Source of the DNA: Candidatus Woesearchaeota archaeon
GTDB taxonomy: Archaea > Nanobdellota > Nanobdellia > SCGC-AAA011-G17 > JACPIM01
Length of the DNA stretch: 53,974 bases
Assembly: GCA_018302125.1 (NCBI GenBank)
Contig: JAGWAC010000004.1
Coordinates: 1-53,974, forward strand
Reading direction: 5' to 3'
Shown in pieces: positions 40,097 to 51,606 of the stretch. Both the position numbers and the translations under genes were made by a program. How positions within the stretch are numbered: position 1 is the stretch's first letter; every line of letters starts with the position of its first letter. Under the pieces are notes generated by a model, which saw only the letters and a program-made list of their open reading frames with translations, made no database searches and had not been told where the DNA came from.

Positions 40097-42502
40097 TTAT
40101 GGCTTATAGAACTTCATCAATAAGGAATTAGAGACCACTGATACTGAGGAAAAGGCCATTGCAGCTGCGGCTATCATTGGATTTAATAAAAATCCTGAAA
40201 AAGGGTATAAAACTCCGGCAGCTATTGGAATTCCCGCTGTATTATAGAAAAATGCCCAAAATAAATTTTGCTTAATTTTCCTTAGTGTTTTCTCTGATAT
40301 TTTAATTGCTATTGCAACGTCTCTTAAATCGTTCTTCATCAAAACTATGGTGCCTGTCTCCAGTGCAACATCTGTTCCAGAACCTATTGCAACTCCAACA
40401 TCTGCTTGGGCTAACATTGGTGCATCATTTATACCATCACCGACTGTGATTACCTTTCTACCAATGCTTTGCAGTTTTTTAACTTCCAATGCTTTGTTTT
40501 CAGGAAGAACTCCTGCAAGAACCTTGTCTATTCCTGCAATTGAAGCAATTGCTCTTGCTGTTCTTTCATTGTCGCCAGTAATCATTATAACTTCTTTGCC
40601 TAATTTCTTGAATATTTCAACTGCTTCTGTTGAATGTTCTTTTAATGTATCTGCCACAGCAATTATGCCGGCAATTCTTTTGTTTATTGCCAATATCATT
40701 ACAGTCTTTCCATGATCTTCCAGCCCAATAATAATTTCTTCTTCTTTTTTAAAAGAAATATTATTTTCCTCCATTAGTTTTCTGTTTCCCAGGTGAATTT
40801 TTCTAATACCAATATTTCCAATAACACCAAGGCCAGGAACTGCCTTGAAACTTTTGGCATCTTCCAAACTTATTTTCTTTAGCTCGGCTTTATTTAAAAT
40901 AGCTTCTGCAAGCGGGTGTTCTGATTTTTTTTCTAGTGAAGCTGCAGATTTCAACACATCTTCTTCTGAATAATTATTTAACGGAAATACATCTGTTACT
41001 TCTGGATGACCTTTTGTCAGAGTTCCTGTTTTATCCAAAACAATTGTATCTGCTTTATGGACTATCTCCAATACTTCGGCATTTTTAATTAAAATCCCAT
41101 TCTCAGCTCCTTTTCCTGTTCCAACAATGATTGCTGTTGGTGTTGCCAACCCCAATGCACAAGGGCAAGCTATGATTAATACAGCTATGAAATTGGCAAG
41201 AGCAAATGTAAACTCTTTTTCAAATATAAAATACCAAGTGAAAAATGTCAAAAATCCAATAATTAAAACGCCGACTACAAAATATTTGGAGATTATATCA
41301 GCCAACCTCTGGATTGGGGCTTTGCTTCCCTGGGCTTCTTCAACAAAATTAATTATCTGGCTTAAAACTGTATCTTTACCTATCTTAGTCGCCTTAAAAA
41401 CAAAATGGCCGTGCTTATTTATAGTTCCGCCTATAACTTGGGATTTAACTCTTTTTTCCACTGGAATACTCTCTCCAGTGATCATTGACTCATCAACAGA
41501 AGAATCCCCTTTTACTATAACTCCGTCAACAGGAATTTTCTCTCCTGGTTTAATAGAAATTAAATCATTTATTTCAACTTCTTCTATTGATATTGTAATT
41601 TCTTTATTGTTCCTTATTACAGTTGCTGTTTTGGGCTGCAAACCAATTAACTTTTTTATTGCTTCTGATGCTTTCCCCTTTGCTTTTGCTTCAAGCCATT
41701 TACCAAGCATAATAAATGTAATTATAACTGCAGCAATGTCAAAATAAAGATCAGAACCAAATGTTTCTGGTGAGAAAACACCAAGAACACTATAAAAATA
41801 AGCTGCGCTAGTTCCAAGAACTATTAGGGTATCCATGTTTGCGCTTTTTACTTTTAATGTAGTAAATGCACTTTTATAAAATCTGTAACCAATAACAAAT
41901 TGAATTGGCGTTGCCAATATGAAAAGGGCTATTTCTCTATATAAAAAATCTATTTTAAAAAATTCATAGAAAGCAAGGATAGACAAAGGTATTGTCAAGA
42001 TCAAGGAAAATATGAATAGATTTTTCAATTTTCTTATTTCAGCTGCCCTAACTTCCTTTTCTCTGTCCAAAGATGTTTCTTCTACAGCCTCATAACCAGC
42101 TGATTTTATTGTCTTGATTATATCTAAAGAGGACATTTTTTCTGGATTATATCTTATAACTGCTTTTTCATTCTGGCTTAAGTTTGCTTCAATAATTGAA
42201 TCTTTGAATTTTGCCAAAGAATTGCGGACAGACATAATGCAGTGCTCATTATCCATTCCAATTACCTTTAAATGAAGAACCCCCTGCTTGTCTTCAGAAT
42301 CAAGAACTTCATATCCTGCCCGGTTTACTGCCTGGACAAACAAATTTTCATCAGCATTTTCATATTCTATAGATGCTTTTTCTGTTGCAAAGTTAACATT
42401 AGCATTAATTACACCAGAAACTTTTTTAAGCTTTTTTTCTATAATGGTTGCACAACTTGCGCAATGCATTCCCTTTATTTTGAGGACTTTTTTCCTAACC
42501 AT
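40097..42502 (-). CDS. copA: Cu(I)-translocating P1B-type ATPase
   Basis: GMHCASC HMA, TGES, CPCALG, DKTGT, SEHP, GDGIND, YN, MAFSS. Confidence 0.97.
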
Positions 42503-44294: not shown

Positions 44295-45665
44295 TCATAT
44301 TACTTTAATTATACCTGGACCAGCCATGCCCATTGAGCAACTGAATTTTATCGAGCCTTCTTTTTCAGGAACAAAATTTATTGTTTTTATCTGGTTTCTT
44401 GGCAAGTAGTCATTTATTCCTAAACTAGGCACTAAAAAAGTCTGTGCACATCCTGTTGCCCTCCTTCCATCAATACGCCATTCAACTGGAATTCCCTTTT
44501 TAACTGTAAATTTGGAGGGATAATAATCTAGACCTTCTACTTTCATTTCTATAACTTGTTTTCCTTCAACAAGTTTTGCGCTTGAATCTGTTGTTGGCGA
44601 CTGTGCATTTGCTGAAGGCAGAAATGAATCAAAATTAAACGGGCTGCCAGTTAATGTAAGACCATAACTCATATTTGTAAAACCAAGAATTATTATTAAT
44701 ACAGCAACAAATTTTGTAAAATATCTCTTGAATGTTCCTTGGGAATAGCTTGTTAAATAACCAGTTGACAATAAAGCTGGCAAGGTTCCCAGAGAAAAGG
44801 CAAACATGCTTAAAGAACCAACTAAAAAACTTCCTGTACTTAAAACATATAATTGCAAGGCCTGAGTAAAACCACAAGGTAGAAAAAATGTTGAAGAGCC
44901 AAAAAAGAATGGAGCTGATTTAGAATTTGATACTGACAAATTATGGATTTTGTGCACTACTAATTTGGGCATCTTTATTTTTAATCTATTTGTAAAAGAG
45001 AAAATATTCAGAATCTGAAAACCTAAACTAAGCATGATTATGCTTACAAATATTGTTATGAATCCTGATGCTTTTGGTGATATTTTGAATATTGATCCTA
45101 CTGCCCCCAAAAGCCCGCCTAATAATGTATATGAAAATATTCTTCCAACATTAAAATAAATGTGCGGCTTGAATTTTTGTTTTGGTGTTAAATCCGGATG
45201 TGCTTCATTATATTTTGTTGCTATTCCAAGCAACAGGCCGCCTGAAACTGCCATGCATGTTGAAAAAGCAGCAACCAATCCTATTAAAAAAATAAATCCA
45301 TAACTCATATTTTCAGAAATTCCCAGATTTGGAAGTATATCAAACTGCTTAAACAACAAATAAATTCCAAGAAGAATCAGAAAAATAGCACCAATTTCAA
45401 GATGATCTTTTTTTATTTTTATTATGCTTTTATTTTTATCTTCTACATTCTGTTTTTTTTCAGTAACCATGTATTTTGTATCTTTTAGTGCTTCTTGTAT
45501 CTGTGTTATTGATGGTACTTCAGTACAAGTTAATATTGCTTTTCCAGCTGAGTGATTTACTTCTGCTTTTAAGATTCCATTTATTGTTTTTAATTTTCTT
45601 TCTAAAAGAACTTCGCAACTAGAACAGGTCATACCAGAAATTTTTAATTCTATTTTTTCTGTCAT
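44295..45665 (-). CDS. HMA + DsbD_2 (TauE/SafE-like) + cupredoxin-domain membrane protein
   Basis: GMTCSSC; STCMAVSGG, GRIFSY, LPCGFTQ; C-terminal GCA...FSCSMGM. Confidence 0.9.
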   Translation of the reverse strand: MTEKIELKISGMTCSSCEVLLERKLKTINGILKAEVNHSAGKAILTCTEVPSITQIQEALKDTKYMVTEKKQNVEDKNKSIIKIKKDHLEIGAIFLILLGIYLLFKQFDILPNLGISENMSYGFIFLIGLVAAFSTCMAVSGGLLLGIATKYNEAHPDLTPKQKFKPHIYFNVGRIFSYTLLGGLLGAVGSIFKISPKASGFITIFVSIIMLSLGFQILNIFSFTNRLKIKMPKLVVHKIHNLSVSNSKSAPFFFGSSTFFLPCGFTQALQLYVLSTGSFLVGSLSMFAFSLGTLPALLSTGYLTSYSQGTFKRYFTKFVAVLIIILGFTNMSYGLTLTGSPFNFDSFLPSANAQSPTTDSSAKLVEGKQVIEMKVEGLDYYPSKFTVKKGIPVEWRIDGRRATGCAQTFLVPSLGINDYLPRNQIKTINFVPEKEGSIKFSCSMGMAGPGIIKVI

Positions 45666-45859
45666 TCTAATTTATATCCTAGTTTTTCTATTACTTCCTT
45701 TATTTTATTTAGATTAGTTTGTTTTTCATCAAATTCAATATTTAGTATTCCTGTTCTATAGCTTACTTCTGCTTTTACATTTATGTCCTGAAGGTCTTCT
45801 TTAATTAGTTCTTCACAGCTTTTACAGTGCATTCCTTTTACATTTAATTTTAATTTCAT
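45662..45859 (-). CDS. copZ: CopZ-like HMA copper chaperone
   Basis: VKGMHCKSC...LGY; ATG at 45859. Confidence 0.88.
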   Translation of the reverse strand: MKLKLNVKGMHCKSCEELIKEDLQDINVKAEVSYRTGILNIEFDEKQTNLNKIKEVIEKLGYKLE

Positions 45860-45978
45860 AATTCTCAGTGAAATATCAAAATTGGATATATAATCTTTTT
45901 GGTTGTTGTAAGGGTTACGAGAGAAAAGCATTTAAACTGACATCTATATTAGAAAATAAATTTTATACAAAAAAAACA

Positions 45979-46521
45979 ATGGCAAAAAACATAGCACTTG
46001 GATTAATTTTGGTTGGCATTGCTATAATTTTTTTAATATCAATTTCAATATTTAAATTACAAATAAATAGTTTGACTAATGCATTAATGGTAGAAAGCGG
46101 GGGAACATGCATAATAGAAGGAAAATGTCTTCATGAAAAAAGCAACACACCAGTTTATATTGGGGTTGCCATAACTTTTGTTACTTTATCCCTGGGATTA
46201 TATCTTATCTTTTTTGAAAAAGGCCAAAAATATACTGAAGAAGCTTACAAAGAAATTGCAAATTCTCTGAAAGAATCAAAGAAAAAAGAAAATAAAGACG
46301 AGAAATTTAATTTTTTATTAAAGGCTCTTAATGATGATGAAAAAAATATTATGACTGCAATCAGAGACCAGAATGGAATAGAACAGGCTACTTTAAGAAT
46401 AAGAACTGATTTAAGCAAAACCAAGCTCAGCGTTCTTCTTAGTGAACTTGAGAAAAAAGGCCTTTTAAAGAAAGTAGCTGAAGGCAAAAAGAACAAAGTT
46501 TACCTTAAAATGTATATTTGA
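45979..46521 (+). CDS. Membrane-anchored winged-HTH transcription regulator
   Basis: Two TM helices flanking CIIEGKCLH; C-terminal GIEQATLRIRTDLSKTKLS.LL.ELEKKG...GKKNKV. Confidence 0.8.
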   Translation: MAKNIALGLILVGIAIIFLISISIFKLQINSLTNALMVESGGTCIIEGKCLHEKSNTPVYIGVAITFVTLSLGLYLIFFEKGQKYTEEAYKEIANSLKESKKKENKDEKFNFLLKALNDDEKNIMTAIRDQNGIEQATLRIRTDLSKTKLSVLLSELEKKGLLKKVAEGKKNKVYLKMYI

Positions 46522-46638: not shown

Positions 46639-47403
46639 TTGGAAAAAATGGAAGAAAAGCAAAATAAAATAAAATTTGTTAAAATTATGAATATTTTATT
46701 GGTTTTTGGCTTAATTTTTGCTCTTTACAGCCAATTTCAATTACTTTCTATAAGAGCTGTAAATTCAGATGGTTTGGAAAATGCCAATGGCGCAGTTTTT
46801 GCTTCTAGCGAGGTATTACCTGTTGGCGTGCCAAGGATATATGGCCAGAAACTTGGGATTAAATATGATTTTGTAAGCTCAAATAATCAGCAGCTGGCTG
46901 ATCAGACAATAGAAGTCTTAGGAAATCTTGACAGAACTATAAATTTAGAAGGGAAGAACTTAGAAAGATATGTTGATATTGTTTCTGAAATAAGCTGTGA
47001 ATATTGCTGCGGCGCCAAGTCAATAATTGTAAGAAAAGAGGATGTTGCAGAAATGGAGAAGAATATACAAAACGCAATAACTACAGGACAAATAACTGAG
47101 GAAGAAGCAGTCAAGTTCAGAAGAACTGCTGGCGAAGCTGCATGTGGTTGTGCACATTCTTTTGCAATGAGAGGATTAGCAAAATACCTTATTCTAAACA
47201 ATGGAGCTGAATTTACAAATGAAGAGATTTTAAATGAGTTAGGAAAATGGAAGACTTTGTTCTTTCCTGAACAAATGAGTGCCAAAGCAGCAGTAATGAA
47301 AGAAAAGAACATAGAATTTAGTTATGCTAATTTGGGAAGCAACAGATACAGGGGAATAGAACAAGGAGCTACAGCAAGCGGACAAATGGTAGGAGGATGC
47401 TGA
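46639..47403 (+). CDS. Membrane-anchored Cys-rich protein ending in QMVGGC
   Basis: N-terminal TM; CEYCC and ACGCAH motifs; GAGGTG RBS. Confidence 0.8.
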   Translation: MEKMEEKQNKIKFVKIMNILLVFGLIFALYSQFQLLSIRAVNSDGLENANGAVFASSEVLPVGVPRIYGQKLGIKYDFVSSNNQQLADQTIEVLGNLDRTINLEGKNLERYVDIVSEISCEYCCGAKSIIVRKEDVAEMEKNIQNAITTGQITEEEAVKFRRTAGEAACGCAHSFAMRGLAKYLILNNGAEFTNEEILNELGKWKTLFFPEQMSAKAAVMKEKNIEFSYANLGSNRYRGIEQGATASGQMVGGC

Positions 47404-47404
47404 A

Positions 47405-47599
47405 ATGAACAAAAAAATGATAATGCTGATTTTAGCAGTTGTTTTAGTTTTGCTGATTGGAGTACAGGCTTATGAGCTTAATGTACTGAAGAAGAACATT
47501 AATGGCGACTTTGGTTTAGAAACTGGAACATTTTCAAGTGCTACAACAGCAAAACAAAGCAGTCCAGCAGCTGCCTCACAAATGGTAGGGGGATGCTGA
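47405..47599 (+). CDS. Small membrane-anchored protein ending in QMVGGC
   Basis: TM helix, Ser/Thr/Ala linker, same C-terminal motif as the upstream gene. Confidence 0.8.
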   Translation: MNKKMIMLILAVVLVLLIGVQAYELNVLKKNINGDFGLETGTFSSATTAKQSSPAAASQMVGGC

Positions 47600-47600
47600 A

Positions 47601-48068
47601 ATGAAAAATGCTTATATTTTTTCTTTTTTTATTTTGAGCCTTTTAGGTGTATCTATTTATCTTTTGTCTGATAACCAAAATAAAATAGATGGAAATGTTG
47701 GCGAAGTTATTTTATATAAATCAAATACATGTGGTTGTTGCGGAATTTATTATAATTATCTTAGAAACAATATTGGTAATTCTATAAAGGCAGTGAATTT
47801 AGAAGATATGAATGCAATAAAAGAAAAATATACTATACCATTATTTCTCCAGAGCTGTCATACAACAATAATCAGTGGGTATTTTGTTGAGGGGCATATT
47901 CCTATTGAGGCTATTAACAAATTAATTTCAGAAAAACCAAATATAAAAGGAATAGCAATGCCTGGAATGCCTTCAGGTTCACCTGGAATGCCTGGAAAAA
48001 AGATCGGGTCTTTTGATGTTTTTGCTGTTTCAAATGATGGAAAAAGCGAATTATTTATGAGTTTGTGA
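47601..48068 (+). CDS. DUF411 (CopG-like) metal-binding protein
   Basis: YKS.TCGCC, SCHT, GYFVEGHIP, PGMPSGSPGM. Confidence 0.92.
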   Translation: MKNAYIFSFFILSLLGVSIYLLSDNQNKIDGNVGEVILYKSNTCGCCGIYYNYLRNNIGNSIKAVNLEDMNAIKEKYTIPLFLQSCHTTIISGYFVEGHIPIEAINKLISEKPNIKGIAMPGMPSGSPGMPGKKIGSFDVFAVSNDGKSELFMSL

Positions 48069-48075
48069 GGAGAAA

Positions 48076-48594
48076 ATGAAAAAATTTTTTATTTTTACTT
48101 TTTTATTAATATATTTGGATAAAGCGTATGCTCATTGTCCTCTATGCACTGTCGGCGCTGTTGCAGCTGCTGGCGGAGCTGCCTGGTTGGGATTAAGCCA
48201 AATTGTAATTGGCTTATTTATTGGGGCTTTTGCAATTTCTCTTGGATTATGGAGCTCTAGATATCTGAAGAAAAAATATGTTCCAATTCAAAATTTTTTA
48301 ATCGCTCTTTTTTTATTTTTGACAATAGTCTTGCCAGTTTTACCTCTAATGAAAGAGCTTTATCCTTTTTATATAAATATTTCTGGAGATTATGGTTCTT
48401 TGCTAAACAGGACTTATATTATAAATTCTTTTTTAGGTGGGGGCATTATAGGTGGAATTATTGTCTTTTTGTCGCCTTTTGTAAGCATGAAAATTATGAA
48501 ACTGAGAAATAATAAGCTGATCCCTTACCAGGGTGTATTAATCACTTTATTACTCTTAATAATAGCTGGGGTTATATTTCAACTGACATTATGA
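48076..48594 (+). CDS. Membrane protein with AHCPLC motif
   Basis: Signal-like N-terminus then HCPLCT; about 4 TM segments. Confidence 0.75.
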   Translation: MKKFFIFTFLLIYLDKAYAHCPLCTVGAVAAAGGAAWLGLSQIVIGLFIGAFAISLGLWSSRYLKKKYVPIQNFLIALFLFLTIVLPVLPLMKELYPFYINISGDYGSLLNRTYIINSFLGGGIIGGIIVFLSPFVSMKIMKLRNNKLIPYQGVLITLLLLIIAGVIFQLTL

Positions 48595-49016
48595 GCTTTT
48601 TTTATGTCCTTGGGATTATTTCTGTTTTGTTTTTTGTACTACTTTTTATAAAATCTTTTTTCAGACTAAATAATTTCTGTGTTATCTGCGGATCAGTAAG
48701 CTTGACATGGATATTGCTTTTAATTTTATACTGGTCTGGATATTTTAAAAATACATTAATTATTGCCTTACTTGCTGGACAGAGCATTCTTGGATTATTT
48801 TATTTATTTGAAAAAAAACTAGAGATGTTTCGCCTACCTTTTCTGCTTACTTTAACTTTTTTTGGATATTCTTTGTTTGGCGTTTATGATGGAATAAAAG
48901 AAAGTGTAATTTTCCTGCTTATTTTGTGGTTATTGTTTTTTGTTTTATACTATTATCAAGACAAAAATATGAAGTCATTTGTCAAAAAAATAATAGAGTG
49001 CTGCAGAAATTGGTAA
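48591..49016 (+). CDS. Membrane protein with CVIC and C-terminal ECCRNW
   Basis: ATGA overlap with upstream gene; about 5 TM segments. Confidence 0.75.
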   Translation: MSFFYVLGIISVLFFVLLFIKSFFRLNNFCVICGSVSLTWILLLILYWSGYFKNTLIIALLAGQSILGLFYLFEKKLEMFRLPFLLTLTFFGYSLFGVYDGIKESVIFLLILWLLFFVLYYYQDKNMKSFVKKIIECCRNW

Positions 49017-49591
49017 ACAGTAGGAATGAAAAAAACAGCAGAAGCAAGGAGAGAAAACCATTAATTTATGGTTTTCTTGGCGGAATTCTCTTAATTAGTT
49101 TTTATTTTTTTGTACTTAGTTTTGCAAACAGTTTCCAGCATGCTATGCAGGAATTTCTAAAATTATGGTATTTTATACTTCCAATTGTAGCTGGATTTGG
49201 AACCCAGGTTGGATTGTATTTTTATATAAGATCTTTTACAAATAGGATAAACTTAAATGGGGAAGTTATGGCTACTGGGGGGGTTTCTGGTGGCTCAATG
49301 ATTATCTGCTGTGTTCACCATCTTTTTGATATTCTTCCAATTATTGGGCTAAGTGCATTTTCGTTATTTTTAGTAAATTATCAGACAAGTTTTCTTTTGT
49401 TTGGAATCTTGTCCAATTTTGTTGGATTAAGCATGATTCTAGGAATTATACAAAGAAATAATCTTTATACTAAAAATAATGGCTTCTTAAGAAAGCTGAT
49501 GTTTTTAAATTATGACAGAACAGTTTATTATGTACTAGGAATTTCTGCTCTGATTTTTTTAACTAAATTAATTTCAACGAGGTGGTTTTAA
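48926..49591 (+). CDS. Membrane protein with CCVHH motif (true start probably near 49010)
   Basis: GFGTQVGLY, SMIICCVHHL.D.LP; several TM segments. Confidence 0.75.
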   Translation: MVIVFCFILLSRQKYEVICQKNNRVLQKLVNSRNEKNSRSKERKPLIYGFLGGILLISFYFFVLSFANSFQHAMQEFLKLWYFILPIVAGFGTQVGLYFYIRSFTNRINLNGEVMATGGVSGGSMIICCVHHLFDILPIIGLSAFSLFLVNYQTSFLLFGILSNFVGLSMILGIIQRNNLYTKNNGFLRKLMFLNYDRTVYYVLGISALIFLTKLISTRWF

Positions 49592-49999
49592 ATGTTTAAA
49601 GAAATATCTTTTGTATTTTTTGTAATTGTTTTAATCAGCGGGTTTTTCTTTATTTTTCTGGATTCTGGTGAAACAGAACTTAATTCATCTTCGAATTTAC
49701 AGACCAAAACAAGTCAAAGCACAGTCAGCATTGATCTTACTCCACAATCATTTAATGGAAAAGAATTTGTTGTCAACATCGGTGTGAATACACATATAAC
49801 TGATTTAAGCAGATTTGATTTAAAAGAACTTGCTGTTTTGGAAATTAATGGAAAGTCTATAAAACCAAAATCTGCACCAAAGCTTAGCGGGCATCATAAC
49901 AAAGGTGCCTTGATTTTTGATGTAAATAAAAAACCAGAAGACTTTAAGATTATAGTAAAAAGTTTTCCAGATTTAGAATTAAGAGAATTTAAATGGTAA
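49592..49999 (+). CDS. Membrane-anchored beta-rich protein with NTH and GHH motifs
   Basis: N-terminal TM; VNTHITDL, LSGHHNKG.L.F. Confidence 0.75.
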   Translation: MFKEISFVFFVIVLISGFFFIFLDSGETELNSSSNLQTKTSQSTVSIDLTPQSFNGKEFVVNIGVNTHITDLSRFDLKELAVLEINGKSIKPKSAPKLSGHHNKGALIFDVNKKPEDFKIIVKSFPDLELREFKW

Positions 50000-50007
50000 A
50001 AAATTAA

Positions 50008-50316
50008 TTATTCCAACATTTCAATCTGAATCTGGACATCTTCAGGAATATGAACTCTCATTACCAATCTTAAAGCTCTTTCATTTACACCCAAGTCAAT
50101 AACTCTTTTATGGATCCTCATCTCAAAATTATCAAACGAGGCTTTACCGCTGCCACATGGTGTTTTTCTTACTGTATGTTTTAATCTTCTTGTTGGCAAA
50201 GGCACTGGACCAGAAATGTTTACTTTTGTTTTTTCTGCTATGTCTTTAATAGATTCACATATCTGATTAAGTTGATCAATATCAGTACTTGCCAAATTTA
50301 TTCTTGCTTTTGCCAT
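50008..50316 (-). CDS. rpsJ: 30S ribosomal protein uS10
   Basis: SGPVPLPT, RKTPCGSG, FEMRIHKRVID. Confidence 0.98.
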   Translation of the reverse strand: MAKARINLASTDIDQLNQICESIKDIAEKTKVNISGPVPLPTRRLKHTVRKTPCGSGKASFDNFEMRIHKRVIDLGVNERALRLVMRVHIPEDVQIQIEMLE

Positions 50317-50449: not shown

Positions 50450-50797
50450 ATGCCCCACGCAATTTTTACAAATCCACAAATTGCTTCTGTAGGATACACA
50501 GAACAGGAATTAAAAGATAAAAAAATAAATTATGCAGTTGGAAAATACAATTATATTGATACTGGAATGGGTCAAGCAATAGAAGAAAAAGAAGGCTTTG
50601 TAAAAATATTAGTTGAAAAATCAACAGGAAAAATTCTAGGCTGTCATATTATTGGTCATGAAGCAAGTACACTAATCCATGAAGTGATCATAGCAATAAA
50701 GTCAGGTTCTGGAACAATAGACAACATTACAAATTCTGTTCATATTCATCCATCTTTGTCAGAAGTAGTTCAAAGAGCAGCAAATAGCAGCATCTAA
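50450..50797 (+). pseudogene. Isolated C-terminal dimerisation domain of a pyridine nucleotide-disulfide oxidoreductase (Lpd/Mtr-like)
   Basis: PHAIFTNPQIASVG, ILGCHIIG, HIHPSLSE; FAD/NAD domains absent upstream. Confidence 0.8.
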
Positions 50798-50868: not shown

Positions 50869-51606
50869 ATGGAAGAACAGAAAGAAGAAACTATAACATT
50901 AAAGAAAACAACAATATGGAAAATTTCAGCTGTTGTATTAGGTATTCTTTTCATAATATCAATTTTTACAGGCGGCTTTGGTTTTAGAGATAACGCTCCT
51001 ACTGGAGGTACAGTATTAGATGACACTGGAAATAATGAACCAACAATAATAGCAAAAGTAAGTGTTGATGACGATCCAGTTTTAGGTAATAAAAATGCGC
51101 CTGTAACAATAATTGAATTTTCAGATTATCAATGTCCTTTCTGTAGAAGATCTTATACCCAAGTTTATTCTTTATTAAAAGAAAATTTCATAAATACAGA
51201 TAAAGCAAAATTAGTTTTTAGAGATTTTCCATTGACAAGCATACATCCAGGAGCATTGCCAGCAGCAGAAGCAGCTGAATGTGCAGATGAACAAGGAAAA
51301 TATTGGGAAATGCATGATAAAATATTCGATGAACAAAATAAATTTGGTCAAGGAACAGTTCCTTTTACAAATGACGATTTAAAAAAATGGGCTTCTGAAA
51401 TAGGATTAAGCACAGGAGACTTTAATTCATGCTTGGATTCTGGAAAATACAAAAGCGAAGTTGAAAAAGATTTTAGCGACGGAAATGCATACGGAGTTTC
51501 AGGAACCCCAACTTACTTTATTGGCAATGATAAAGATGGTTATGTAATAGTTGGTGGAGCTCAGCCTTATCAAGTATTTGAACAAGCAATTAACCAATAT
51601 TTATAA
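50869..51606 (+). CDS. Membrane-anchored DsbA-family thioredoxin-fold protein
   Basis: APVTIIEFSDYQCPFC, RDFPL, GVSGTPT, GAQPY. Confidence 0.93.
   Translation: MEEQKEETITLKKTTIWKISAVVLGILFIISIFTGGFGFRDNAPTGGTVLDDTGNNEPTIIAKVSVDDDPVLGNKNAPVTIIEFSDYQCPFCRRSYTQVYSLLKENFINTDKAKLVFRDFPLTSIHPGALPAAEAAECADEQGKYWEMHDKIFDEQNKFGQGTVPFTNDDLKKWASEIGLSTGDFNSCLDSGKYKSEVEKDFSDGNAYGVSGTPTYFIGNDKDGYVIVGGAQPYQVFEQAINQYL

Follow-up and report, generated by a model that had tools for sequence, protein, structure and literature searches.

A conserved cysteine-ended tail is shared by neighbouring proteins of an accessory gene cassette among copper-defence genes in DPANN archaea

Why should two neighbouring archaeal proteins end in the same six residues, encoded by almost the same 28 nucleotides? 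The question arises in a 53,974-nucleotide stretch (the window; positions 1 to 53,974 of contig JAGWAC010000004.1, assembly GCA_018302125.1) of a Candidatus Woesearchaeota archaeon with an 829 kb genome of 29% G+C. Two adjacent open reading frames (ORFs), of 254 and 64 residues, both close with QMVGGC followed by TGA. The tail proves to be a conserved tag, not described before, that marks a gene cassette lying among copper-defence genes. To the reading that it serves as a tethered cysteine arm for extracytoplasmic copper handling we give a probability of about one half. The features concerned are as follows.

46639 to 47403, forward strand: large tail protein, 254 residues; TTG start at 46639, with database copies beginning at an ATG three codons downstream.
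47382 to 47409, forward strand: cassette 1, ACAAATGGTAGGAGGATGCTGAAATGAA; the Q-M-V-G-G-C codons, TGA, one base and the ATG of the small gene, with GGAGG lying within the Gly-Gly codons.
47405 to 47599, forward strand: small tail protein, 64 residues; a membrane anchor ending in VQAYEL, a Ser/Ala/Thr-rich tether and QMVGGC.
47578 to 47605, forward strand: cassette 2, ACAAATGGTAGGGGGATGCTGAAATGAA; GGG replaces GGA, followed by the ATG of a DUF411 gene.

A first-pass annotation of the window had reported a common QMVGGC tail on a near-identical 28-nt cassette, with the start of the next gene one base beyond the TGA, and both points hold. The two cassettes are identical at 27 of 28 bases, the sole mismatch being GGA versus GGG, and the ATG codons at 47405 and 47601 each lie one base past the preceding stop, with GGAGG or GGGGG 8 nt 5' of them. 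These are the only two ORFs ending in GGC among the 4695 of at least 30 residues in the whole genome. The accompanying statement that the two proteins share no other similarity stands in part: both have an N-terminal anchor followed by Q-x-x-[QE]-[IL], and this resemblance is not significant for the window pair. The small protein scores 5.2 bits against a profile of the large-protein N-terminus (shuffle maximum 6.2), and the same profile reaches at least 10 bits in 10 of 92 small tail proteins and in none of 460 shuffles.

The large protein is built from an N-terminal membrane anchor, a Cys-rich domain that is presumably extracytoplasmic, a Gly/Ser linker and the terminal QMVGGC; basic residues precede the anchor in the tail proteins. 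Its motifs are SCEYCCG (residues 119–125), CGCAHS (169–174) and KWKTLFFP (203–210), and its count of six cysteines recurs in 88 of 110 aligned relatives.

A word-indexed search with the large protein gave 1679 relatives at E ≤ 0.001 among 2154 candidates. The first-pass annotation had allowed that the motif might prove to be merely local; the tail is kept in homologues, since MVGGC ends 117 of the 120 matches listed, and the other three stop earlier and look truncated. The motifs SCEYCC, C-x-C-x-HS, MRG, K..L.FP and MVGGC are invariant in the family alignments (A1, 35 rows; A2, 110 rows). An exhaustive HMMER search of 1.84 billion representatives, with clusters defined at 50% identity, found 303 clusters at E ≤ 0.001, 245 at 1e-10 and 116 at 1e-30. 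A terminal cysteine is present in 124 of the best 150 of these 303 representatives, and the 124 tails read MVGGC (70), QVGGC (27) or otherwise (27; for example, MVGSC, MVGDC and WVGEC). Counting back from the end, the cysteine at −1 is present in 124/124 and glycine at −3 in 123/124, followed by valine at −4 (112), glycine at −2 (106), proline at −7 (88) and leucine at −8 (72); position −5 is methionine in 86, glutamine in 32 and tryptophan in 3. As read from these tails, the general family motif is LPx[MQ]VGGC-COOH. Methionine is thus replaced by glutamine in about a quarter of the representatives, whereas Gly(−3) and Cys(−1) are fixed. An obligatory Met–Cys chelate is therefore unsupported, as is the proposal of Met-x-x-x-Cys as the functional unit; the methionine position behaves like a shape or recognition residue rather than an obligatory copper ligand.

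The small proteins carry the same ending in 89 of 90 matches to their profile, which itself includes the tail. In one of them (P0160), WWWKK continues past MVGGC, which may reflect read-through or a lost stop codon. Neither tail protein matched a Pfam or NCBIfam family, the large one found no PDB sequence, and a profile search of PDB sequences returned a chance match only (E 0.87). Structure neighbours in the Atlas were unnamed clusters at template-modelling (TM) scores of 0.5–0.65, and CcmH (0.36/0.51) fell beneath the bar of the tool. A search for longer fused forms of at least 446 residues gave nothing usable, and a Pfam scan of 11 long representatives gave one FKBP domain and one sub-threshold match only. 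A literature search found nothing on the MVGGC motif, the tail-protein family or DPANN archaea with DUF411.

The distribution of the tail was surveyed in 401 genomes of the phylum, each at least 90% complete. The tail pattern ATGGTNGGNGGNTGYTRR gave 189 matches in 87 genomes, and the reversed pattern gave one. At least two copies lie within about 1 kb on one strand in 76 of the 87. A profile of the Cys-rich domain matches 90 genomes, and tail and domain occur together in 85; the two tail-only genomes contain chance matches outside ORFs, and one of the five domain-only genomes carries QVGGC on both proteins (L090). Both other genomes of the same genus as the window are without the system. In one of the two (G098, contig C30), the ATPase, HMA-DsbD_2, regulator and ribosomal protein S10 genes found in the window lie on one contig, and about 276 bp replace window positions 46639–49999 (3.4 kb). 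The tail cassette is therefore a discrete accessory unit, gained by insertion or lost by deletion. The system also appears under bacterial bin labels (Bacteroidetes, Gammaproteobacteria, Bacteroidia) in L010, L049, P0031 and P0166; mis-binning is likely for L010, because it hardly differs from the Woesearchaeota locus L009.

For comparison of gene order, one genome per species was used; 383 stretches encode a relative, and 80 loci were kept. In 71 of them the large gene is followed by one to three small ORFs on the same strand ending in [MQ]VGGC, and the remaining nine are contig ends, have no detectable tail ORF or hold small proteins only. The order is that of a conserved accessory cassette of DPANN archaea: a membrane-bound regulator, the large tail protein, one to three small tail proteins, a DUF411/CopG protein and a membrane protein with an HCPLC motif.

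The 92 small proteins are of three kinds. Sixteen combine the anchor and tether with ..YEQMMARMHP.., 24 (plus one missed by the regular expression) combine the anchor with ..GWTE.EKMNYEMHG..PAR, and about 51, including that of the window, consist of anchor and tether only. Met/His motifs are thus found as M-x-x-M-H in 16/92 and as M-x-x-x-M-H in 24/92. After the anchor, the terminal cysteine is the sole cysteine in all 91 small proteins with a detected membrane segment (one of the 92 had none), and Cys-Cys precedes the anchor in 13/92. The flexible tether described in the first-pass annotation is a general trait: it is 10–73 residues long in the small proteins (median 43; rich in S, A, G, Q and T), and a Gly/Ser-rich linker of 6–18 residues carries the tail in the large ones. 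The Met/His motifs recur as ..ETYEQMMARMHPDQ.. and ..GWTE.EKMNYEMHG.[IL]PAR.. in L004 (7037–7267), L027 (6629–6877) and 38 other small ORFs (L001–L080). A related sequence, YMEQMHPG, is found in separate SHOCT-domain proteins of the same neighbourhoods.

The tail is also portable. Several loci encode proteins of about 400 residues that join a polytopic membrane domain (CPVCQS) to a Cys-rich domain without the tail, followed by one small protein ending in LPSMVGGC. The fusions are the following.

L082, 2507 to 3745, reverse strand: tail-less fusion; no Pfam family found.
L083, 1540 to 2745: tail-less fusion.
L084, 1502 to 2719: tail-less fusion.
L085, 2684 to 3895, reverse strand: tail-less fusion.
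L087, 924 to 2150, reverse strand: tail-less fusion.

Since a tail-less domain stands here beside a small tail protein, the tail can act in trans. Moreover, the residue at −5 is matched within loci. Large/small pairs drawn from 160 loci of genomes and metagenomes number 133 for M/M, 14 for Q/Q, 2 for Q/M (one lineage twice) and none for M/Q. A quick maximum-likelihood tree of the domain, with the tail excluded (116 distinct rows of 128), places 8 state changes in the large and 9 in the small proteins; the four independent contrasts on supported branches (median p 0.125, a number that cannot reach significance) run in the same direction in 3.7 on average and never in the opposite one. In 12 Q loci, paired tails share from 0 to 5 of 5 synonymous third positions, and all 5 in one locus only. 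Because the synonymous sites differ, the match is not the product of ongoing conversion, and it fits one common reader of both tails.

How far the overlap with the next gene's ribosome-binding site accounts for the tail was judged from 168 tails (80 loci and the window), of which 8 were dropped (less than 200 nt past the stop and no start found) and 160 could be evaluated. A start codon lies within 8 nt of the stop in 120, exactly one base past it in 70 of these. The other 40 have no start within 8 nt and all keep the peptide, so that the motif does persist where no gene follows, a point that the first-pass annotation had proposed to check. Its suggestion that the Gly-Gly codons double as a Shine–Dalgarno sequence is borne out by an excess of GGAGG in the tail codons of coupled over uncoupled tails (73/120 versus 13/40; Fisher p 0.003). 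In this genome 9.5% of the regions upstream of long ORFs contain GGAG or GAGG, a modest excess over the 3% at random positions, and in a promoter and terminator scan no signal relevant to the cassette exceeded the shuffles. Pairs of 28-nt cassettes from one locus resemble each other no more closely (mean identity 19.06/28; 107 pairs) than pairs from different loci (18.82/28; 13,921 pairs), and the same is true of synonymous matches (1.52/4 versus 1.44/4). Gene conversion therefore does not maintain the motif, which is under selection as a peptide. Identity of at least 27/28 is found in just 2 of the 107 within-locus pairs, making the window pair an outlier that may reflect recent local conversion. 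In the only other such pair (L063; 6857 and 7209), the cassettes are fully identical over 28 nt and over the next 14 nt as well, which suggests a recent tandem duplication of the small tail gene. The overlap with the ribosome-binding site is real and is a secondary reuse of sequence fixed for another reason: a coding sequence held at the protein level has come to double as the ribosome-binding site for the gene that follows.

What the peptide does was approached through the genes around it. The first-pass annotation had made its proposal depend on copper genes near the tail, and the window has these, with DUF411/CopG, a Cu(I)-type ATPase and HMA proteins nearby. The genes that flank the tail genes in the window are these.

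47601 to 48068, forward strand: DUF411/CopG-like protein, 155 residues (PF04214, E 8.2e-25, 86.7 bits, cut-off 27), with a CxCC motif formed by C44, C46 and C47.
48076 to 48594, forward strand: HCPLC membrane protein, 172 residues, with HCPLC just past a signal-like N-terminus; a conserved downstream partner.
45868 to 46521, forward strand: DUF7343 membrane-bound winged-helix regulator (PF24034, E 2.3e-9), directly upstream of the large tail gene.
45662 to 45931, reverse strand: single HMA protein, divergent from the cassette; relatives in 9/75 loci.
44295 to 45665, reverse strand: HMA-DsbD_2-cupredoxin fusion, divergent from the cassette; relatives in 14/75 loci.
40097 to 42502, reverse strand: P1B-type ATPase with two HMA domains and the motifs CPC, NX6YNX4P and PX6MXXSSX5[NS].
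50869 to 51606, forward strand: membrane-anchored DsbA-like thioredoxin-fold protein with CPFC (Thioredoxin_4, E 4.4e-31); relatives in 9/75 loci.

The three ATPase motifs are those that we take to mark the Cu(I)/Ag(I) subtype. The DUF411 gene is translationally coupled to the small tail gene. The regulator, which probably starts further downstream than the GTG at 45868, has two membrane segments, and the loop between them holds C81 and C87 (C-x5-C) followed by a histidine (GGTCIIEGKCLHE), an arrangement that would suit sensing outside the cell. A DUF5676 gene is also present in the window.

Neighbours were counted in 75 loci as BLAST relatives lying no more than 5 kb from the large gene, at least 3 kb of flank being available on either side in 55 and 56 of the loci. 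Relatives of the regulator and of the HCPLC protein were found in 45 loci each, of DUF411 in 37 and of the ATPase in 18; by clustering, the regulator is present in 59 of 76 loci. Of the 37 loci with a DUF411 gene, 32 have it directly behind the final tail gene. Across the 401 genomes DUF411 was found in 43, namely in 38 of 85 tail-positive versus 5 of 316 tail-negative ones, with the reservation that related genomes are not independent. Twelve metagenome loci of more divergent branches (145 ORFs) were also scanned for families, giving DUF7343 in seven, DUF411 in two and DUF2933 in two. Peptidases of the M48/M56 families lie in three, one of them beside a BlaI/CopY-like repressor, and single loci hold a CsoR-like repressor, an HMA-DsbD_2-cupredoxin protein, a YHS protein, a P-type ATPase, a ZIP protein and a rhodanese. 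HMA, cupredoxin, YHS, CsoR-like and CopY-like genes accordingly occur in related loci.

Sulfur-related enzymes were seen near the tail genes as well. A rhodanese-DUF411 fusion is encoded in L074 (6844–7617), a rhodanese directly upstream of the large tail gene in L129 (4264–4686), and a cysteine desulfurase directly downstream of the tail genes in L105 (6241–7407) and L148 (6123–7289), which belong to one lineage.

The copper arm is favoured because DUF411, the Cu(I)-type ATPase and the Met/His motifs together make copper the cargo with the strongest specific link. The tail would be a functional peptide held outside the membrane by a flexible tether, and its terminal cysteine would do the work. 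The tails would act as swinging arms, each docking as a peptide into one common receptor, and an arm would pass Cu(I), held as a thiolate ligand, between capture sites and this receptor; copper as the cargo and the direction of transfer are presumed. Capture sites could be the Met/His motifs of many small tail proteins together with the exit of the Cu(I) ATPase, and the part of receptor could fall to the CxxCC / CxC-H domain of the same or another protein, to the adjacent CopG-like protein, or to both. The DsbD-like and thioredoxin-like neighbours might keep the thiols reduced. A complex prediction for the large (A2) and small (A3) proteins scored 0.08 and 0.03 against a mark of 0.32 and carries no weight either way.

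Several observations weigh against copper as the cargo or against a common receptor. DUF411 is found in just 38 of 85 tail-positive genomes, and a P1B ATPase lies within 5 kb in just 18 of 75 loci. The glutamine at −5 in 32 of 124 tails removes the soft ligand that the earlier proposal relied on, and the small protein of the window is of the kind ('type C') that has no Met/His motif, its last residue being its sole cysteine. The M/Q covariation depends on the four contrasts given above, and no position in the domain alignment varies along with the tail's M/Q state. DsbD-like (DsbD_TM, DsbD_2), SfLAP or thioredoxin-like membrane proteins occur in 8 of the 12 metagenome loci, and the rhodanese, the rhodanese-DUF411 fusion and the cysteine desulfurase hint at a sulfur link that copper does not explain. 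A redox or sulfur cargo fits the DsbD, thioredoxin, rhodanese and desulfurase neighbours as well as copper does.

A conserved, horizontally patchy cassette of five to eight genes is unlikely to be idle, because DPANN genomes are tiny. If true, the copper arm would be a new extracytoplasmic copper-handling mechanism in which mini-proteins consist of an anchor and a cysteine arm alone; it would supply a working partner for the little-understood CopG/DUF411 family, and LPx[MQ]VGGC with its docking site would form a compact peptide-receptor pair. A bolder form can be offered only tentatively, with the odds against it. Here [MQ]VGGC-COOH would be a new portable carrier tag, and the mini-proteins would do no more than hold one reactive cysteine at the outer face of the membrane, offering it through peptide docking to CopG and to a Cys-cluster domain dedicated to it. 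Tethered through a protein, such a tag might take the place of a diffusible low-molecular-weight thiol in cells that have no periplasm and no such thiols outside, where it would buffer Cu(I), and perhaps electrons, at the cell surface and hand them on.

C-terminal cysteine tails that carry metal or electrons back and forth are known from MerA (Cys-Cys), domain 3 of the SOD1 copper chaperone (CxC), human CTR1 (HCH) and mammalian thioredoxin reductase (GCUG), where a flexible C-terminal segment brings a reactive thiol to or from a buried site, in cis or between subunits. Those tails belong to the enzyme or transporter and offer two ligand residues, whereas the tails described here have one cysteine, an eight-residue recognition peptide and mini-proteins that would act in trans. 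The closest analogue in mechanism may be the cysteine swinging arm of SoxY. SoxY likewise has a cysteine beside glycines at the end of a mobile, strongly conserved C-terminal peptide outside the cytoplasm (PMC5336275), and such conservation would be expected of a peptide that has to fit into partner sites. In contrast to SoxY, the tail proteins show no sequence relation to it, the arm sits on membrane-anchored proteins including anchor-plus-arm mini-proteins, and the context is one of copper genes, not Sox genes. CopG resembles the tail family in being cysteine-based, extracytoplasmic and encoded in copper islands, and in its vicinal cysteines (CxCC in CopG; CxxCC and CxC-H in the tail family), but DUF411 proteins do not have the MVGGC tail. 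According to a review (PMC7558416), CopG holds a tetranuclear Cu cluster by its CxCC motif, and a role in oxidising copper or handing it on has been proposed.

Among the alternatives, the one that survives best, though it is unlikely, is a thiol-disulfide relay, in which the arm would carry reducing equivalents, not metal, from DsbD/CcdA-like and thioredoxin-like partners to the CxxCC/CxC domain or CopG. This would resemble extracytoplasmic redox systems that protect against copper-driven mis-oxidation. In Scs and other DsbD/CcdA-fed systems, membrane electron conduits and thioredoxin-fold proteins, which use CxxC folds, are encoded with copper-tolerance genes, and similar proteins stand beside copper genes in the window, as the HMA-DsbD_2-cupredoxin fusion and the DsbA-like protein, and in the metagenome loci, where the membrane proteins in 8 of 12 adjoin the tails. 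Additionally, a divergent DsbD_2-like ORF of about 330 residues lies a few kilobases from the tails in at least 14 genomes, vicinal CC and CxC are typical redox motifs, and a lone cysteine is limited to intermolecular disulfides. However, DsbD_2 is widespread and weakly enriched (189 of 401 genomes; 52/85 tail-positive versus 137/316 tail-negative), compared with 38/85 versus 5/316 for DUF411, and the Met/His motifs on 40 of the 92 small proteins would be left unexplained. The relay modules known to us have CxxC pairs in thioredoxin folds, not a single terminal cysteine, and we know of no Scs or DsbD-system member with a terminal-Cys tag or a CxxCC / CxC-H domain.

An improbable alternative is a sorting, processing or lipidation signal, with an enzyme modifying or cleaving the tail once (a thioether lipid or an envelope cross-link) and no carrier role. 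The eight-residue C-terminal peptide with its fixed glycine and cysteine, matched per locus, is what a shared enzyme would impose, and V-G-G-C resembles a lipobox. Yet an N-terminal membrane anchor is already present, and the protein stops at the motif, whereas sortase or archaeosortase signals continue into a membrane helix and a basic tail. No candidate processing enzyme is conserved in the cassette, the M48/M56 peptidases being confined to 3 of the 12 metagenome loci, and the tail always accompanies the Cys-rich domain (85/85 genuine tail-positive genomes).

Less probable still is a SoxY-like sulfur carrier, whose terminal cysteine would ferry sulfur, as a persulfide or another adduct, from enzyme to enzyme on the outer face of the membrane. 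The Gly-Gly-Cys end on a mobile peptide recalls the SoxY arm (PMC5336275), and the rhodanese-DUF411 fusion, the rhodanese and the two cysteine desulfurases would suit such a role. Against this, those enzymes occur in only 4 loci, two of them of one lineage; no Sox or sulfur-oxidation family was found among the neighbours scanned, and neither tail protein gave an above-threshold Pfam match, hence none to the SoxY family. Cysteine desulfurase, moreover, is a cytoplasmic type of enzyme.

A local duplication or gene conversion retained only for the ribosome-binding site and start of the next gene can be rejected: the 27/28 identity of the window cassettes, the GGAGG enrichment and the one-base spacing in 70 of 120 coupled tails speak for it, but the tail is conserved across 303 clusters at 50% identity with codons varying freely within and between loci, 40 of 160 tails retain the peptide where no gene follows, Shine–Dalgarno-like motifs are just modestly used in the genome, and the neighbours are copper genes.

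Membership of known families was considered separately. The SoxY C-terminus is GGCGG, while cysteine is the last residue in all 124 Cys-ended representatives; neither tail protein gave an above-threshold Pfam-A match (hmmscan, E up to 10), and SoxY was not among the weak ones. No SoxZ or Sox enzyme was found among 12 window proteins, 20 locus proteins and the 145 metagenome ORFs scanned, no genome-wide Sox search having been run. Neither protein matches PF04214 (CopG/DUF411), which is matched only by the neighbour at 47601–48068, or HMA/CopZ (PF00403, defined by MxCxxC), the HMA domains being in separate genes. The PCYCGC-motif family (PF13798) has no match to the tail proteins or anywhere in the 829 kb genome at E up to 10. 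Sortase and archaeosortase signals such as PGF-CTERM place a membrane helix and then a basic tail behind a short motif; here the stop codon directly follows the cysteine, and there was no NCBIfam match. A lipobox, [LVI][ASTVI][GAS]C, ends an N-terminal signal peptide, whereas VGGC is C-terminal, 10–73 residues past the hydrophobic segment. Ubiquitin-like sulfur carriers (ThiS/MoaD/SAMP), which are cytoplasmic beta-grasp domains with a C-terminal Gly-Gly, were set aside, on sequence and not on fold, as there was no Pfam or NCBIfam match and the tail proteins are membrane-anchored; a class III (pilin-like) signal peptide was rejected on the same grounds of sequence.

Downstream of the HCPLC gene, three further ORFs complete the segment that is replaced in G098.

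48591 to 49016, forward strand: ORF of 141 residues with CxxC and a C-terminal CC; relatives in 23/75 loci.
48926 to 49591, forward strand: ORF of 221 residues, start uncertain, with CC inside a membrane segment; relatives in 23/75 loci.
49592 to 49999, forward strand: ORF of 135 residues without cysteine; relatives in 16/75 loci.

The first two of these, like the HCPLC protein, are membrane proteins with Cys motifs. The three ORFs and the HCPLC protein (48076–49999 together) matched no Pfam or NCBIfam family. The sequencing runs listed as carrying the sequence are 20 DNA runs from groundwater and soil metagenomes, with no RNA run among them. Beyond the segment, the ORF at 50450–50797 (forward strand, 115 residues) encodes the dimerisation domain of a pyridine nucleotide-disulfide oxidoreductase alone (PF02852, E 4.6e-33), without the preceding flavin adenine dinucleotide/nicotinamide adenine dinucleotide (FAD/NAD) part. 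It looks like a gene remnant and adjoins the gene for ribosomal protein S10 (50008–50316, reverse strand).

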